This document shows, piece after piece, positions 7,817 to 64,000 of a stretch of 64,000 nucleotides of DNA. A program made the position numbers and the translations under genes. The stretch is from an uncultured Gemmatimonadaceae bacterium (lineage in GTDB: Bacteria; Gemmatimonadota; Gemmatimonadetes; Gemmatimonadales; Gemmatimonadaceae): contig CAVXGK010000001.1 of NCBI GenBank assembly GCA_963761305.1, positions 1,216,001 to 1,280,000 on the forward strand. The letters run 5' to 3'. The first letter of the stretch is position 1; the number at the start of each line of letters is the position of its first letter. Below the pieces are notes generated by a model, which ran no database searches, was not told where the DNA came from, and worked only from the letters and a program-made list of their open reading frames with translations.

Positions 7817-7962
7817 ACGCGTGCTCGGACTGTCGTTCGCAGGTCAGCGTGGAGGCTCGGGGTGGGACTATCCTCCGCGGAAGATCCGGGCGGCTCGGGC
7901 GCGTGAACAACTACCGCGAATCGATCGGATCCGCGCGCAGATGGGCGAACAAAGGGACTGAG

Positions 7963-54455: not shown

Positions 54456-55316
54456 TCAAGGCGCGGCGGGCAAAGCGTGTCGAACGCCGAACAGGTTCAC
54501 CCAGAGATCACCGTGTGCAGCGAGCCGCTCGGGCATCGTCCGCAGCGTGATCGATTGCGGGCCGACCTCGCCGCTCTCGAGTTCGTCCCACGTGCATGGC
54601 GCCGAGGTGGGCGCGCCGGGCTTCGGCCGCACCGCGTACGTCGCCGCGAACGTCGCGCCAAAGTCGTTGCGTCCGGTATCGACGAGAATCTTGCCGCCGC
54701 GGTCGGCCTTGTAGAACTCCTGCGTCAAACGATCGGGCGCGCGACGCACCAACTCGCGTCCCACGGCGTGGGCGAAGCGCGCGACCTGGCCGCTGTCGGA
54801 CTTCTCGTCGAGCGCGAACACGACGTGAAAGCCCTTCGATCCCGACGTCTTCACCCAACTCGCGACGCCGAGCTCGGCGAGGGTGTCGCGGAGGAGCAAC
54901 GTCGCGGAGCGCAGCGCATCCGCGTCGTCGACGAGCGGGTCGAGATCGAACACGCACAGGTCGGGATAAAGCAGCTTTGGCACGCGCGACGTCCACACGT
55001 GGGGCGTGATGGAGTTCTGATTCGCCATCCATAGGATGCCGCGCGCGTCGCGCACGACCGCGTAGTTGACGACGCCATCCGATTTCGGCACGGCCACGCG
55101 TTCGAGCCACGCGGGCGCAGCCGGGCCGAGATTCTTCTGAAAGAACCCCTTCTCGCCGATGCCGCGGTGGAAACGCTCCATCGTCACGGGCCGGCCGGCG
55201 ATGTGCGGAAGCATGACCGGCGCGACGAGCTGATAGTACGACGCGAGCTCTCCCTTGGTGATGCCGGACTCGGGGAATATGACCTTTTCGGGATGCGAAA
55301 TCGCGATCTCGCTCAT
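54456..55316 (-). CDS. LigD-type primase-polymerase domain protein (NHEJ)
   Basis: ISHPEKVIFP, TKGEL..YY, FFQK, FDLDP, KTSGSKGFHV and YAVRP. Confidence 0.92.
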   Translation of the reverse strand: MSEIAISHPEKVIFPESGITKGELASYYQLVAPVMLPHIAGRPVTMERFHRGIGEKGFFQKNLGPAAPAWLERVAVPKSDGVVNYAVVRDARGILWMANQNSITPHVWTSRVPKLLYPDLCVFDLDPLVDDADALRSATLLLRDTLAELGVASWVKTSGSKGFHVVFALDEKSDSGQVARFAHAVGRELVRRAPDRLTQEFYKADRGGKILVDTGRNDFGATFAATYAVRPKPGAPTSAPCTWDELESGEVGPQSITLRTMPERLAAHGDLWVNLFGVRHALPAAP

Positions 55317-56182
55317 GCGGCGGGCGGTTCTCCGCGTACCACGTCGCGCGCCCGAACGTTCGTCGGGACCGCGAGCAATCGGGAGTGTCGCAGCTTGGTG
55401 TGTACGGTCCACTCGATGAACGCCACGCGCACGACGATCTCGGGGCGCACCCAATGCGCGCGCACGCGCGGCAATCCTTTGGCTCTGGTGAACGGCGATG
55501 TCTCGAGTTCCATCGCGTCGAACCGTGCACGAAGCGCGGTCAAGAGCTGCGTGTCGAAGCCCGTGCCGACCTTGCCGGCGAAGACGAAGTCGTTGCCCTC
55601 GAAGAATCCCACGAGCAGCGCGCCGAGCCCGACGCGTTTGCCCTGCGCGTCGGTGAAGCCGCCGACGACGAAGTTCTGCGCCAGCTCGCACTTCATCTTG
55701 AGCCAGTGCTTCGACCGCTTGTGCTCGTATGGCGAGTTGCGGCGCTTCGCGATCACGCCTTCCCAACCCTCGGCGCACGCGCGATCCCACGGTGCCGCGT
55801 CGTCGATCTCGCTCACGCGGTACAGCGGCGCTTCCAGCGGCAACGCGGCCAGCAGCGCACGACGCTCGGCCAGCGGAATTTGCGTGACGTCGCGACCGTC
55901 GAGCCACACGACGTCGAACACGTGATATGCCGTGTGTCCGTCCCACGTGACTTCGCCGTCGAGAATCGCGTCGCCGACCGGCAGCGACGCGACGGCTGAA
56001 GCGATGCGAGGCAGGTCCTTCTCTTTTCGCGTGCGGGAGTAGAGCCGTACGCTGTCGCCCTGTTTGAACGCGATGAGGCGGATGCCGTCGTACTTCCGCT
56101 CGAACATCCAGTCTGGCCCGGTGAAACGCTCCTGCGTGAGCGTCGCCGCCATGGGCTCGATCCAGTCGGGAAAGACCGTCAT
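55313..56182 (-). CDS. ATP-dependent DNA ligase, LigD ligase domain
   Basis: PMAATL, ERKYDGIR, LDGEV, FDV, EGVIAKR, WLKMK, GKVGTGF and WVRPE. Confidence 0.92.
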   Translation of the reverse strand: MTVFPDWIEPMAATLTQERFTGPDWMFERKYDGIRLIAFKQGDSVRLYSRTRKEKDLPRIASAVASLPVGDAILDGEVTWDGHTAYHVFDVVWLDGRDVTQIPLAERRALLAALPLEAPLYRVSEIDDAAPWDRACAEGWEGVIAKRRNSPYEHKRSKHWLKMKCELAQNFVVGGFTDAQGKRVGLGALLVGFFEGNDFVFAGKVGTGFDTQLLTALRARFDAMELETSPFTRAKGLPRVRAHWVRPEIVVRVAFIEWTVHTKLRHSRLLAVPTNVRARDVVRGEPPAA

Positions 56183-57996: not shown

Positions 57997-60656
57997 GTGG
58001 CGACGCCGCCCTTTCCCACCGACCGACTCAGTTCGGCATTCGCCGGCCGTTACCGGATCGAACGGGAACTAGGCGCCGGCGGCATGGCCACCGTCTATCT
58101 CGCCGCGGATCTCACGCACGATCGCAAAGTCGCGATCAAGGTGCTCAAACCGGAGCTGGCCGCGGTGCTCGGCGCCGACCGGTTCGCCGTTGAGATCAAG
58201 ACGACGGCGTCGCTCCAGCATCCGCACATCCTACCCCTCTTCGATTCCGGCACGGCCGACGGACTGCCGTTTTACGTCATGCCCTACGTCCAGGGCGAGA
58301 CGATTCGTCAGAAGCTCGACCGCGAGACGCAATTCGGCATCGACGACGCGATCCGCATCGCGCGCGAGGTGGCCGACGCGCTCGACTACGCGCATCGGCG
58401 GGGCGTGGTCCATCGCGACATAAAGCCCGAGAACATTCTGCTGCACGACGGGCGCGCGATGGTGATGGACTTCGGCATCGCGCTCGCCGTCTCCGCCGCG
58501 GCGGGCGGCCGGATGACCGAGACCGGCCTCTCGCTCGGAACGCCGCACTACATGTCGCCCGAACAGGCGACGGCGGAGAAGGAGATCACCGGCCGCTCCG
58601 ACATTTACTCGCTCGCGAGCGTGTTGTACGAGATGCTCGCCGGTCAGCCGCCGCACCTCGGCGGCTCGGCGCAGCAGATCATCATGAAGATCATCGCCGA
58701 GCCGGTGCGGCCGGTGACGCAGTATCGGAAATCGGTGCCGGCCAACGTTTCTGCCGCCCTCGACAAGGCGCTCGAGAAGCTCCCGGCTGATCGTTTCGAG
58801 AATGCGAAAGCGTTCCGCGACGCGCTGGCCAACGCGACGTTTACGACCACGACTGCCGCGAGGCCCACGCGTGCCGCAGCTGAAGCGCACGGCGGCGTGT
58901 GGCGCGGCGCGCTCGTCGCGACAGCCGCTGTCGCGCTTCTCGCGACGGTCGGCTTCGTGTGGGCGTTGCGCCGGCCGACGGTCGTGCCAGACGAGCCAGT
59001 TGTGCGCGTTGTCGTCGATCTGCAACCGGGCGAACGGCTGCCCTCCGGCACTCTCGGATCGGTGGTCGCCATCTCGCCACAGGGCGACCGCCTCGTGTAC
59101 GGGGCGGTGGGGACGGCCGGCACGCGCCTAATGATCAGGCGCACCGGCGAGACGACCGCGCGCGAACTGACCTCCGCGGTGGGATGGCAGCCCGCCTTCT
59201 CGCCCGACGGTAAGTGGATCGCGTATACGGACGGCGATGAGGTCAGGAAGATCTCGGCCGATGGCGGACCGAGCTCGCTGCTGGCGACCATTTCCAACTC
59301 GGGCATTCGTGGTCTCTGCTGGACCGGGAGCGACACCGTCCTGGTCGGATCGGACGCTGGAATGCTCGCGGTCTCGAGCCGGGGAGGCGCCCCACATCGC
59401 GTTCTCGAGGTGGATTCGACAGCCTCCGCCGTGTATCCGGTGATGCTCCCCGATGAGAAGACGTTTGCGTATACCGTCGGCGGCACGGCTGGTTCGCGAC
59501 GACTCGTGGTGACATCGCTCGCGTCGCACCGAACGACGGTGCTCGAGACCGCCGCCGCGGTTGCGCTGGGAATGCGCGACGGGCACCTGCTGTACGTGAC
59601 GAGCGCCGGTGCGTTGGACGCGGTCCCGTTCGACCTCGACCGGCAGCAGGTGAGCGGCGATCCGATCCAACTCGAGAGCGGCATACAGATCTCTGGTCCG
59701 GGCGCGGCGCTCGCATCCCTTTCCGTAAATGGGTCGCTGTGGTACGTGAGCGGAGAGTCGATGAATCATCTCGTGCGTGCGGCGATCGGGGGGGACGGCC
59801 GGACGTGCCACTGATCGACGACGCGCGCAAGTTCAGGAATCCGCGCTTCTCCCCCGATGGGCGGAAATTCGCCGTCGAGGTGACCGATGCGAAGGGCGCC
59901 AACATCTGGTTGTACGATCTTGCCGGCAAAACCCTCACACCGCTCACCAAGGACGGCGGTGGCGTCCCCGAATGGTCGGGAGACGGAAAGCGCGTCCTCT
60001 ATAGGTCGACCGGCGTCGGAAAGGTCGCCGTCAACTGGCTGCCCGCGGACGGGAGCGCTCCGGCCGAGTTGCTATACCAGCCGGACGAAGCGATCAACGA
60101 GGCCCTTCTGTCGCAGGACGGGAAATGGCTGATCTATCGAACGGCCCCCGGCCTTCACAACCGCGACATCTTCGCCGTTCCACTCGATGGAGACCGCAAG
60201 CCAATCCTTCTCGTGGGTGGGCCGGCGCACGAGTCGCATCCGCGCCTGTCGCCCGACGGAAAGTGGATGGCGTATCAGTCGAACGAGAGCGGCCGGTTCG
60301 AGATATACGTGCGGCCCTTTCCGGGCAACGGCCCTCGCGTCCAGGTGAGCAACGATGGCGGCCAGGAGCCCCTGTGGGCTCGGTCGGGCAACACGATCTT
60401 CTATCGAACGCCGACCGGCGGCCTCGAATCCGCCGCCGTGACGCGCGGGGCGACGATCACGGTTGGAGAGCGTCGCGTCGCGCTGCCACCGGCTGACTAC
60501 ATGGACGACATCACGCACGCGAGCTACGACGTCTGGCCGGACGGCAGCGGATTCCTGATGGTGAAATCTGTCAGCGCGGACGACCGGCCGATTCTCGTGC
60601 ACAACTGGGGCCGGACACTGCGCGAAAAATTCGCTGCGGGCAGCGATTCAAAGTGA
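57997..60656 (+). CDS. Ser/Thr kinase + TM + PD40/TolB-like beta-propeller, frameshifted near 59795
   Basis: HRDIKPEN, DFG and YMSPE; FSPDG repeats continue in ORF 59739..60656 (SNESGRFEIYV). Confidence 0.88.
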
Positions 60657-60701: not shown

Positions 60702-61118
60702 ATGCCAGCCAAACTCTGGGCGCGACCCATCCTCCACGTCGGCGACGTCGCCGCGAGCATCGCCTACTACTGCGAAAAACTCGGCTTCGCCGAGGATTGG
60801 AACGAGGGCCGTGACGACTCGCCCGTCGCACAAGTGAGCCGCAACGGCATCGCGCTCATTCTCGACAAGCACACCTACTTTGCCAAAGCGGGTACGCCGA
60901 GCGTCATCAGTCTGACGTTGAACGATCTGCCCAACCGCCCGTCGCTCGACGCGTTGCATCGCGAGTTGCTCGTCGCCGGCGCGAAGATCACGAAATCGCC
61001 GTTCAAGGTGCATTGGGATCCGCACCTGTACGAACTGGACGTCGAAGATCTCGACGGCAACGTGCTCATGTTCTGGGGATTCATGCCGCCCGAGCGCGAG
61101 TTCACCGGGGTGGAGTAA
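60702..61118 (+). CDS. VOC/glyoxalase (bleomycin-resistance-like) protein
   Basis: PILHVGDV..SIAYY..KLGF...EDLDGNVL.F. Confidence 0.85.
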   Translation: MPAKLWARPILHVGDVAASIAYYCEKLGFAEDWNEGRDDSPVAQVSRNGIALILDKHTYFAKAGTPSVISLTLNDLPNRPSLDALHRELLVAGAKITKSPFKVHWDPHLYELDVEDLDGNVLMFWGFMPPEREFTGVE

Positions 61119-61188
61119 CAGCGATGAACACGCTGGTCCGTTCGGGAAACGCTGGCTTTTTCGCAAGTGGCGATCGCGGGCGGCACCA

Positions 61189-61695
61189 TCCTTCGCGCGA
61201 CCGCCCGCAAAACTGCCGATACTGCCGGCAGTATTGCAACGGCTCGCGCTGCGGACGGTGCCACCCGCTCTCTGGGTTGCGTTGAAAGGCGATCATCCGC
61301 GTGAGAGCGATGCCGCGCTTCGTGAAAACGGCGCTACCATGCGGTCATGCCCGCCACGGACCCGATCCCGGCACTGAAGCAGGAGGCCGCCGTCGCGCTC
61401 GTTCCGCTCGTGGAACGCTGGAATCGCAACGATGCCGCGGCGCTGCTCGGTACTGAGGGCGAGCGGATCGCGGACTTGCGATACGGGAGGCTCGATCGGT
61501 TCTCGCTCGAGCGACTGATCCGGTTCCTCGTGCGGGCTGGCGCACGCGTCGAGCTGCGGATCACAGCGCCTCGGCACTGACGCCGAACGCCTCGGGCCTG
61601 GCCACTCGGAGAGCGGAGCGGCCTGGTGTCCGCAGCGCGAGCCGTTGCAATACTGCCGGCGGTATCGGCAGTGTTGCGGGCGGTCGCGCGAAGGA
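61189..61695. mobile_element. Inverted-repeat-bounded mini-cassette carrying an HTH gene
   Basis: 68-bp IR at 61189-61256/61628-61695 with 2 mismatches; an apparent empty allele lies at 62830-62882. Confidence 0.55.
61347..61580 (+). CDS. Small XRE/HTH_37-type DNA-binding protein
   Basis: AAALLG...RIADLRYGRLDRFSLERLIRFL...G..VEL.I. TACCAT -10 box lies 6 nt upstream (leaderless). Confidence 0.8.
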   Translation: MPATDPIPALKQEAAVALVPLVERWNRNDAAALLGTEGERIADLRYGRLDRFSLERLIRFLVRAGARVELRITAPRH

Positions 61696-61766
61696 CATCA
61701 GGCCGCTCCGCTCTCGCCCCTGGCGGCCCATCTCGCTCGCACGAAGAGCGTCAAGCTTACCGCCAG

Positions 61767-62750
61767 CTACCGCTTGCCGCTGATCGGATCGGCGAGCACG
61801 CCCTCTTTCGTGATCCTGACCGGCTGAATGAATCCGCGCTCGTCGAACCGCATCTCGTCGATGCTCACCACGCGGTGATTGCGGTCCGTCTCACCGAGCG
61901 GACGGCGGTGGTAGACGATGTACCACTTCCCGGTCGACGGCGATTGGATCACCGAGTGATGCCCCGCTCCGGTGGCGACCGTCGAATCCTGCTGGAGGAT
62001 CTTCCCGACGCGCTCGAACGGCCCGAAGGGTGATGAGCCGATGGCATACGCGACGGCGTAGTTGGGACCCGTCCAGCCGCCTTCGGACCACATGAAGTAG
62101 TACTTGTCGCCCTTGATCAGCATGAACGCGCCTTCGACGTAGCCCGAGGGCGTGATCTCCTTGAACGTGCTGCCGTCGGGAAGCGGGACGAAGCCGGTGA
62201 AATCGGCGTTCAGCTTCGCGACGTTGCAGTGGCGCCAGCCGCCGTAGACGATGTAATAACTGCCATCACGATCCTTGAACACCATTTGATCGATCGGCTG
62301 CGCGCCGTTGTGGAACGCATCGATGAGCGGCTTGCCGAGGTAGTCCTTGAACGGACCCTCCGGCGTTCGCGCTCGCGCGACGCCGATGCCGCCGACCTGC
62401 TGGTCGTTCTGGATGTCGTTGGCGCCGAAGAACAGGTAGTACCAGCCGTCCTTCTCGATGATCGACGGCGCCCACACGGCGCGCTTGGCCCACTTCACGT
62501 CGGCGACGTCGAGCACGTGCGAATGCTTCTCCCACGTCACCAGATCGCGGGACGAGAACGCGTCGAGGAACGTCTGCTCGTCGTAGGGCGCCGAGTAGGT
62601 CGGGAAGATCCAGTATTGGCCGTCGAAGACGTGCGCCTCGGGGTCGGCGTACCAGCCCGGCAGAATCGGGTTGCCGGAGCGAGGGGCCTGAGCGCGCGAC
62701 GACGCGACGGTGGCGAGGCTGAAGGCGATTGCGACTAAGCAACGTTGCAT
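61767..62750 (-). CDS. Glycoside hydrolase family 43
   Basis: Signal peptide; NPILPGWYADP, WAPS, PID, YVEG and GHHS. Confidence 0.93.
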   Translation of the reverse strand: MQRCLVAIAFSLATVASSRAQAPRSGNPILPGWYADPEAHVFDGQYWIFPTYSAPYDEQTFLDAFSSRDLVTWEKHSHVLDVADVKWAKRAVWAPSIIEKDGWYYLFFGANDIQNDQQVGGIGVARARTPEGPFKDYLGKPLIDAFHNGAQPIDQMVFKDRDGSYYIVYGGWRHCNVAKLNADFTGFVPLPDGSTFKEITPSGYVEGAFMLIKGDKYYFMWSEGGWTGPNYAVAYAIGSSPFGPFERVGKILQQDSTVATGAGHHSVIQSPSTGKWYIVYHRRPLGETDRNHRVVSIDEMRFDERGFIQPVRITKEGVLADPISGKR

Positions 62751-62829
62751 AGGGAAATGGGCGACGGTTCCGAGGTCGGAGGGGAAAATTCCCGGGCGTG
62801 CGGCATTGTCGTTCTTCTTGAGAGGCAGC

Positions 62830-62882
62830 TCGCGGACAGCACCATCCTTTAGGCCGCTCCGCTCTCGCCCCTGGCGTCCCAT
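62830..62882 (+). repeat. Direct repeat of the fused flanks of the HTH cassette
   Basis: 62830-62849 matches 61174-61193 (18/20) and 62851-62882 matches 61700-61731 (31/32). Confidence 0.8.
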
Positions 62883-62910: not shown

Positions 62911-64000
62911 TCATCGCGGGTTGGCGGTCATTGTCGAGCGATGACCGGTGGTCGTCGTCCAGTAGTCCATCCACCGCAGCCGAATCCCCTCGGTCCGCTC
63001 GAGCAACTCCTTGCTCGGCGTCTTGCCGTGCTCCACCACGACGACCATCCCCGTGTTGAATTCCTTCTGCGAATGGTCCACGTCCGGCAGCCGCGGACCC
63101 GCGACGGCGATCACGTCCTGAATCGACACCTTGGTGCGATCCGCCTTGAAGATCGGATGTCCGTTCGCGTCGCGCCCCTGCGGCACAAGATTTCTGAGAA
63201 TGAAAAAGTCCGGAACCTCGCTCGGCGCGATGAGACCCATGAGATAGAGGTCGAGATACGACCAGCCGGTCGCCGGCACGTAGTAGTCGTCGTCGAGCTG
63301 CGTGAACGTCCCGTCGAAGTTGTCTTGCCAGACGCCGCCGCCCATCGCCGACGCTTCCACAGGGCGCTGATACGGAAACGCGACCGGCGCCTGCAATCCT
63401 CTCGCCCAGTGCGTGGGACCGAGCTGGATCGTTTCGTCGTTCAGTTTCGCGGAGACGAACGCGCTCCATCGATGGCCCATCTCGTGTCCGATCTGCGACA
63501 TCGCGTAGTCGTACGGCGGGATCTTGCCGTTCGACGTTCGCTCGGCGAGTTGGTGCGAGTAGGCGATGATATTGTGCGTGTTGCTATCGACAACGCCGGC
63601 GGGCGGGTACTCAGCCATCTGGTTGGCGCCGACGTACACCGGTTGGATGTACTGCCACTGGAAGCGTCCCTGCGTGCAGTAGTTCGCGAGATTTCTCTGA
63701 TTCGCGCCGATGCCGGTCACCGCGCCGCCGTTCGGGCCGCCGCCGAGTGGGCCTGAGCTCGACGTGCCCGCCTCGGGGTTGTCGATGCGAAAGTCCGAGT
63801 AGTACGCGAGCATGTCGAACTTGTCGCCGAGTGCGTTGATCACCGTGCAAGTGAGATCGACGGCGCGGGGCGGCCTCATGTAGTGGAATGCCTCGTACAC
63901 TGCGGCGAAGGGACCGTCGCTCTTCTTTATGGAAGAAAAATCGACGGCGGCCGCCCGGTCAGCGCCTTTACTCGTGGTCGCGTAGACGCCGACGATGCCG
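62911..64000 (-). CDS. Putative zinc metalloprotease (HExxH), 5' end outside window
   Basis: IGHEMGHRW...THW...AMGG...LDLYLMGL; the frame stays open to the window edge. Confidence 0.7.
   Translation of the reverse strand, partial: GIVGVYATTSKGADRAAAVDFSSIKKSDGPFAAVYEAFHYMRPPRAVDLTCTVINALGDKFDMLAYYSDFRIDNPEAGTSSSGPLGGGPNGGAVTGIGANQRNLANYCTQGRFQWQYIQPVYVGANQMAEYPPAGVVDSNTHNIIAYSHQLAERTSNGKIPPYDYAMSQIGHEMGHRWSAFVSAKLNDETIQLGPTHWARGLQAPVAFPYQRPVEASAMGGGVWQDNFDGTFTQLDDDYYVPATGWSYLDLYLMGLIAPSEVPDFFILRNLVPQGRDANGHPIFKADRTKVSIQDVIAVAGPRLPDVDHSQKEFNTGMVVVVEHGKTPSKELLERTEGIRLRWMDYWTTTTGHRSTMTANPR

Follow-up and report, generated by a model that had tools for sequence, protein, structure and literature searches.

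Does a short site that carries both ends of a small gene cassette, joined to each other, mark a defined place at which the cassette inserts or excises? The question arises in a window of 64,000 nucleotides, the whole stretch of DNA analyzed here, from an uncultured Gemmatimonadaceae bacterium, where a preliminary description reported a filled and an empty version of one locus. The repeats on which it relied were all confirmed. The left repeat (L, 61174–61193) recurs at 62830–62849 with 18 of 20 matches, and the right repeat (R, 61700–61731) recurs at 62851–62882 with 31 of 32 matches (E = 5e-8 against the 5.2-Mb genome); in the joined copy a single T at 62850 separates them. CATC is found at 61187–61190 and 61696–61699, and the cassette contains an inverted repeat of 68 nt (61189–61256 and 61628–61695). 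In the genome as a whole (5.2 Mb in 2 contigs, 93% complete), there are three occurrences of L and three of R, all inside 4.6 kb. They belong to the filled copy, to the joined one, and to another HTH copy whose right hairpin (B) has been deleted; this last copy lies outside the window, just past its end (G000:C1:1280715–1281200) and just upstream of a gene of 586 codons.

L and R had been taken as the flanks of a target. Instead, they are the outer stems of the element's own hairpins, with their pairing partners inside the cassette. The unit has hairpin A at one end, hairpin B in inverted orientation at the other, and an HTH gene of the XRE type between them; it is a dispersed element, of which the cassette is a full-length copy. 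Hairpin A, the left end (61174–61267, minus strand), scores 98.5 bits with model R1, which was itself built including this copy. Its L part (61176–61191) is the outer stem, predicted to pair with about 61250–61267, and the fold is better on the minus strand (z of −6.4, compared with −4.1 on the plus strand). A putative −10 box (61335–61340, plus strand) lies 6 nt ahead of the start codon of the HTH gene (61347–61580, plus strand), which encodes a 77-residue protein of the XRE/HigA type (HTH_37, PF13744) with neither a toxin partner nor a catalytic domain. Hairpin B and its tail occupy 61609–61731 on the plus strand, inverted relative to A; the hairpin itself spans 61609–61716, with z of −8.7 and −7.1 on the two strands, and the R part at 61700–61716 is its outer arm, after which comes the short tail. 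Each hairpin is ∼100 bp long and contains two palindromes of the GGCA-N4-TGC(C) type. The terminal inverted repeats of 68 nt are present, yet lie internal to the outer stems, which are unrelated to each other on the left and right and covary with the inner arms. The joined copy at 62830–62882 has no stable predicted fold (z of +1.4).

An alignment of 47 hairpins shows a conserved predicted fold with covariation. Changes on both sides were observed at 21 of the 26 predicted base pairs, and 94.4% of cells pair, as against 31%–53% when the partners are slid; the shuffle control of pairing is inflated by related rows. Covariation in palindromes could also come from template-switch correction, and the conserved mismatches speak against that process acting alone. 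On one strand, purines make up 90% of the 3 × 3 internal loop, and a GGA/GGA loop is stable in single-stranded DNA. The strand with the purine loop gives the better DNA fold in 43 of the 47 copies and has 59 G-T pairs versus 14 A-C pairs, both comparisons being biased in its favor because the structure had been predicted on this strand. A search of Rfam returned one match, under the gathering score (E of 0.95), and no known structured RNA. A divergent subtype (loci L065, L067, L071, and L072) has a different long hairpin around a related HTH and is mostly missed by the core pattern. In one copy from genome G009 (L033:7284–7813), the outer 38 nt of the two ends are nearly identical, unlike in most copies, which suggests conversion between the inverted ends.

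The element is present in multiple copies across many genomes and is variably present at orthologous sites, in both directions. A profile search of its own genome located about 32–33 hairpins, mainly in inverted pairs with a spacing of 100–500 bp and grouped into four clusters; another HTH_37 gene lies within one widely spaced pair. On inspection, the short pairs keep pieces that align with the promoter side and the 3′ end of the HTH element, and they are therefore read as internal-deletion derivatives. Such HTH-less derivatives are more numerous than the HTH-bearing copies. By inspection, the commonest unit is an intergenic inverted doublet of palindromes, and singlets appear to be decay products. 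A covariance model trained on the 47 hairpins found them in 22 of 31 genomes of the genus, with 1 to 49 matches each. With stricter filters, matches were obtained in 7 of 141 genomes of the family, and the exact core pattern was found in 2 of 301 genomes of the phylum, both within the genus. Viral contigs contained neither an HTH relative nor a hairpin, and plasmids gave no match. The search for HTH relatives retained 118 of 125 candidates, and the related HTH loci were assigned to Gemmatimonadaceae or to higher ranks of Gemmatimonadota. The element family is lineage-restricted.

A hairpin core lies within 350 nt at 42 of 59 HTH loci and on both sides at 20 of 59, compared with 0.2% of 3000 random windows; the 59 loci, from which no rows were dropped, include some near-duplicates and a few distant matches, and being related and partly duplicated they do not give independent counts. 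Within the genus, hairpins were found at 14 of 18 strong-match HTH loci versus 0 of 12 weak-match loci. All 10 genomes with at least 10 hairpins have an element-type HTH. The genus table of hairpins against element-type HTH (16/2/6/7) gives a Fisher p of 0.017, a value that is partly circular and drawn from genomes that are not phylogenetically independent. Six genomes, one of them 99% complete, have 2–7 hairpins without an element-type HTH. The neighboring genes are unrelated between loci.

The substitution pattern of the HTH gene shows purifying selection, with a median dN/dS of 0.21 over 33 close pairs and of 0.43 over all 391 scored pairs. A −10-like box is found 4–8 nt before 19 of 40 HTH starts versus 19 of 390 other predicted starts, which suggests a leaderless transcript; such a transcript would exclude hairpin A. 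A TGATG-like motif ∼30–35 nt upstream and the −10 box are found ahead of the starts of both the HTH and the Uma2 genes (window 61308–61340; L188–L209), possibly as a shared stress-type leaderless promoter. The structure model of the protein (pLDDT 92.7) matched XRE/HipB-type regulators only, and a nuclease fold is absent from its domain and structure matches. An N-terminal DPIPALK motif is specific to the element clade of the HTH, in which no upstream toxin gene was found. Neither a fusion to a catalytic domain nor a longer autonomous form was found; nine longer HTH matches were considered as such a form and set aside, the eight that were read appearing to be mis-called extensions.

Selection on the gene could also mean that the repeats are domesticated, with the HTH as a transcription factor or a nucleoid factor, and with operator arrays or 3′ RNA structures formed by the hairpins, spread through recombination and gene transfer and not by transposition. 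The conserved promoter agrees with this proposal, as do the two GGCA-N4-TGC(C)-type palindromes in every hairpin and a neighboring module that is 98% identical in two species. Against this, the HTH gene is not tied to any conserved locus and has frequently been pseudogenized or deleted, the inferred promoter comes after hairpin A, and a double-strand operator fails to explain the covarying outer stems. Gene 3′ ends face the element in excess of controls (34 of 44 upstream sides and 23 of 34 downstream sides, versus ∼46%), a bias that operators or 3′ structures would predict but that tolerated insertions would also give. Domestication is, in our judgment, quite unlikely.

With L and R assigned to the element, the 53-bp site has to be explained in another way. 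In the best single-step model, 505 bp were deleted between two copies of a shared TC and four substitutions were added, of which the "extra" T at the junction is one; the joined copy differs from the filled copy at 4 of 53 bases. A weakness of this model is that it uses 2 shared bp and a C-to-T change where shared words of 7 and 4 bp were on offer. Crossover at CATC, the word noted at both cassette edges, predicts a junction 4 bases shorter than the real one. Orthologous sites were compared, with junctions read by anchored flanks, in relatives that are different species (about 80%–92% identity in genes). Among 44 element positions in relatives, both flanks lie <400 bp apart in the own genome for 13, which represent nine distinct sites. 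None of these nine sites without an intact element carries an end-to-end join (0/9), and one has a leftover right end. A defined L-R site of insertion or excision is not supported; L and R move with the element.

Other copies have broken elsewhere. The decay breakpoints seen are the tips of hairpins A and B, TC, CGCGGA, and one further end-to-end join in the own genome. The CGCGGA join arose independently at least twice, once in a collapsed element of a sister (A/B) subfamily in the window (7854–7906, plus strand) and once at an orthologous site common to genomes G017 and G019. Contigs of related organisms from soil break at 61615–61680 in two studies. In one soil contig the 3′ end of the HTH is joined to the stop of the 586-aa gene, the gene next to the remnant in the own genome; this arrangement would be expected if the remnant was once filled, and loss of the GH43 interval would also explain it. 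A continuum of random deletion breakpoints had been named beforehand as the pattern that would tell against a site-specific system. The copies do decay at several points, but one breakpoint, that of the sister subfamily, recurs independently, which leaves some small likelihood of a preferred point of excision. Taken together, the 53-bp "empty" site (62830–62882, plus strand), in which the left outer stem is joined to the right outer arm, fits a collapsed third local copy, a dead remnant and not a target. The filled and empty pair is real, yet it is ordinary decay.

The recurrent join leaves room for a second account, in which an enzyme cuts both folded ends and the outer stems are rejoined as a 53-bp footprint, perhaps by end joining. 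The CGCGGA join at two independent loci would suit such programmed excision, and the T at the junction is readable as untemplated. LigD polymerase and ligase genes for non-homologous end joining are present as separate genes in the window (54456–56182), 5 kb from the element. Excision of REPINs likewise leaves part of the element behind (PMC3116915). Yet the breakpoints vary by subfamily and by copy, and CGCGGA is a shared word at the base of the stem, where slippage would be expected. An excised piece lacking its stems could not regenerate the observed copies, all of which have outer stems. We regard programmed excision as unlikely and favor decay.

A trivial origin of the second L-R copy in a local mis-assembly is extremely improbable. 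The junction is bridged by none of the contigs listed from four independent soil runs, which would be in keeping with an artifact; the match of one contig stops at the first base of R, with 91 further letters left unaligned. Nonetheless, the two copies differ at the four bases mentioned, the genome is in just 2 contigs, and other samples join the glyoxalase gene to hairpin A and R to GH43. A separate irregularity concerns the kinase/WD40-type gene (57997–60656), which is in two frames split near 59790; contigs from two soil runs are without 5 letters at 59787, which points to either a frameshift or a mis-assembly at this place in the window.

The direct L/R sites frame a GH43 glycoside hydrolase gene (61767–62750, minus strand), which had been proposed to be a captured cassette. 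Hairpin, L, and R are all absent at its orthologs in 17 of 17 relatives, and its neighbors are retained in two of them; it is a resident neighbor. In genomes G024 and G017, GH43 lies ∼28 bp from the WD40-type gene, and the glyoxalase-family gene (60702–61118, plus strand) is absent from this orthologous gap together with the element. On the other side, the remnant marks the left boundary of a block of three genes, which in four relatives is located elsewhere, and the genes that flank the block there are adjacent to each other in the own genome. The block comprises genes of 586, 550, and 147 codons (window 62911–64000; L001:5238–6890), the first two without an NCBIfam family; the 3′ part of the 586-aa gene, which belongs to no known family, is at 62911–64000 on the minus strand. 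The second HTH copy sits in a gap that is element-free in four relatives.

Within clusters, copies are co-oriented and the genes between them are shuffled among relatives. The differences in gene order include two adjacent genes swapped and a two-gene block moved 40–50 kb; clusters have a copy in nearly every intergenic gap, which weakens the association with breakpoints there. The largest cluster (L004 and L005, G000:C2:3.36–3.40 Mb) has co-oriented copies among Uma2, RelE, HigA-like, and nucleotidyltransferase genes. In this cluster, a Uma2 module (L005:14608–15214) is 98% identical to that of G017 versus 83%–92% for its neighbors, and recent interspecies transfer is therefore indicated. In genome G019 (L035:1139–2635), a hairpin is interrupted by transposase-like genes, presumably of the ISL3 type, which suggests that hairpins are targets for insertion sequences. 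No rule of orientation by replication direction emerged: the clusters oppose the inferred leading strand and three singletons agree with it.

Such arrangements recall integrons, and integron-like capture, in which a site-specific recombinase takes up single genes such as GH43 between direct L/R sites, would account for the co-orientation of clustered copies, the gene order that varies between them among relatives, the remnant at the edge of a relocated block, and the toxin-antitoxin genes in the largest cluster. It is very unlikely, given that GH43 is without sites in the 17 relatives and that the own genome has only two tyrosine recombinases, with best scores to XerD and XerC, and no attC of the genus type. 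Seven genomes of the genus do possess chromosomal integrons with canonical attC (L278, L279, L282, L284–L286, L288, and L293), and none is present in the own genome. The IntI identity was confirmed for one of these integrons, and 19 stretches beside the integrases of relatives contained no significant hairpin. A relation to dif was rejected, since the sole dif-like site found is, by inspection, unrelated to the hairpin.

No mobilizing enzyme, transposition event, or intermediate was found in the present analysis. Target duplications were not detected in 39 elements (shared flanking word of 4.62 versus 4.61 after shuffling); junctions are eroded between species and a short duplication could therefore be overlooked. 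A repeat of 6 bp flanks one lone hairpin. The ends of the element are sharp, and direct repeats, as tandem copies of the terminal bases, are frequent there (40 of 119 element ends versus 84 of 1502 intergenic controls). The reported lack of a recombinase in the window was upheld. Y1_Tnp domains are absent from the own genome at its 93% completeness; in the genus, eight Y1_Tnp/RAYT-like loci in 7 of 31 genomes have no hairpin (best score 18.5 bits). The RAYT-like genes were rejected as mobilizers, as they carry their own short, unrelated repeats without the element hairpin. At L052–L058, RAYT/TIRYT-like genes are flanked by short GGGGTCAGA-type repeats in tandem copies, and several such genes occupy the glyoxalase/hem locus, where G017 bears a lone hairpin B, making it a shared insertion hot spot. 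IS110 is absent from the own genome, which is also without a short GIY-YIG gene, and in five genomes no IS110, DUF559, or GIY-YIG match lies at a hairpin. Inspection of predicted neighbor translations at the 59 HTH loci revealed neither a DDE nor any other transposase. Uma2 (PF05685) lies 3′ of hairpin B at several sites in the own genome, yet a hairpin is present at 4 of 30 Uma2 loci in the genus, and Uma2 was likewise rejected.

From the spread, fold, selection, and decay described above, we infer an enzyme, a target for the HTH, and a slippage chemistry. Probably, a non-autonomous element is recognized in the form of single-stranded, folded DNA by an enzyme that moves it in trans, while the HTH binds its ends and slippage produces the decay series. 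The hairpins would act as single-stranded DNA folded on one strand, with the purine-rich internal loop, and would be moved by an enzyme that is encoded elsewhere or has been lost from these genomes, much as TIR elements and REP dimers are moved. The palindromic ends are the probable binding site of the HTH, which may help or regulate the movement. Replication may further stall at the hairpins, with slippage between short words that they have in common; deletions of the tips, tandemly copied ends, and collapse of whole elements would result, with the L-R site in the window as an end state. Genes would then be shuffled with co-oriented copies as the breakpoints, homologous recombination being the simplest route.

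A bolder version dispenses with the dedicated enzyme. In this nuclease-free replicator, the HTH, derived from an antitoxin, would attach to the folded ends and bring in a host enzyme, so that the element and its HTH-less derivatives are copied, the joins are footprints, and the copies are landing pads. We consider this doubtful, though conceivable. If true, the host enzyme would be part of the repair, end-joining, or replication-restart machinery, and co-oriented copies would be landing pads for gene exchange between species. The preliminary suggestion that the cassette is small, mobile, and non-autonomous, and that its family is undescribed, is supported, in the form of a dispersed hairpin-HTH element.

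By the features tested, the element is not an integron, a pdif module, or a classical MITE. The attC sites of integrons are imperfect hairpins of which one strand folds better, with a purine-rich unpaired region, a variable tip, and co-oriented clusters. The element resembles them in hairpin length, strand preference, purine-rich loop, variable tip, and co-oriented clusters; it differs in having neither RYYYAAC/GTTRRRY ends nor IntI linkage and in its inverted pairs of hairpins. MITEs and mobile insertion cassettes are insertion-sequence ends with passenger genes. The element is similarly non-autonomous, with inverted ends, a passenger gene, and deletion derivatives that outnumber the full form, but has no target-site duplication and, on inspection, no cognate DDE transposase at the 59 loci. 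With HigA-type antitoxins it has in common the HTH_37 Pfam family and the XRE fold. Distant HTH_37 matches lie downstream of putative toxin genes, which we take to be of the RelE/Gp49 type; the HTH of the element, in contrast, has no upstream toxin, contains the DPIPALK motif, and is flanked by hairpins.

The closest likeness is to elements built from palindromic repeats. As in REPtrons/TIRtrons and REPINs (PMC3733652; PMC3116915), a single gene lies between inverted self-complementary repeats, and many gene-less dimers and singlets, intergenic clusters, and decay by internal deletion are found; that the element gave no sign of target duplications is a further likeness. The gene of the element encodes a 77-aa HTH, whereas that of the REPtron is a Y1/HUH transposase (PMC3733652). 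The hairpins, of about 100 bp with conserved internal loops, also differ from those of REPtrons and REPINs, and inspection of the 47-row alignment showed no conserved tag corresponding to the REP foot (GTAG, CGTC, or GGGGWSAS). NTS-ssnA-NTS (PMC11893778) likewise pairs a small single-domain gene with hairpins on both sides and has hairpins alone in many copies. Its repeats are associated with the gene on one side in 71% and on both sides in 42% of cases, and the rates for the element (42/59 and 20/59) are similar. Its SRM hairpins are shorter (20–50 nt), and its gene is a GIY-YIG nuclease (PMC11893778).

The element is real, selected, and apparently undescribed; searches of openly available literature returned no paper on the family, and supplementary repeat lists, for example that of PMC3733652, could contain it. 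The family reaches up to about 50 hairpins per genome and is located at points of rearrangement in a soil lineage that is common. A testable question follows, one that also applies to CGTC-type REPs, for which PMC3733652 describes no linked transposase: what copies palindromic repeats that have no dedicated enzyme? Known hairpin-flanked bacterial elements bear a nuclease, either an HUH transposase or a GIY-YIG enzyme, whereas the present element has the same layout with a DNA-binding protein only. It works like REPtrons/TIRtrons, REPINs, and NTS-ssnA-NTS, minus the linked HUH or GIY-YIG nuclease.
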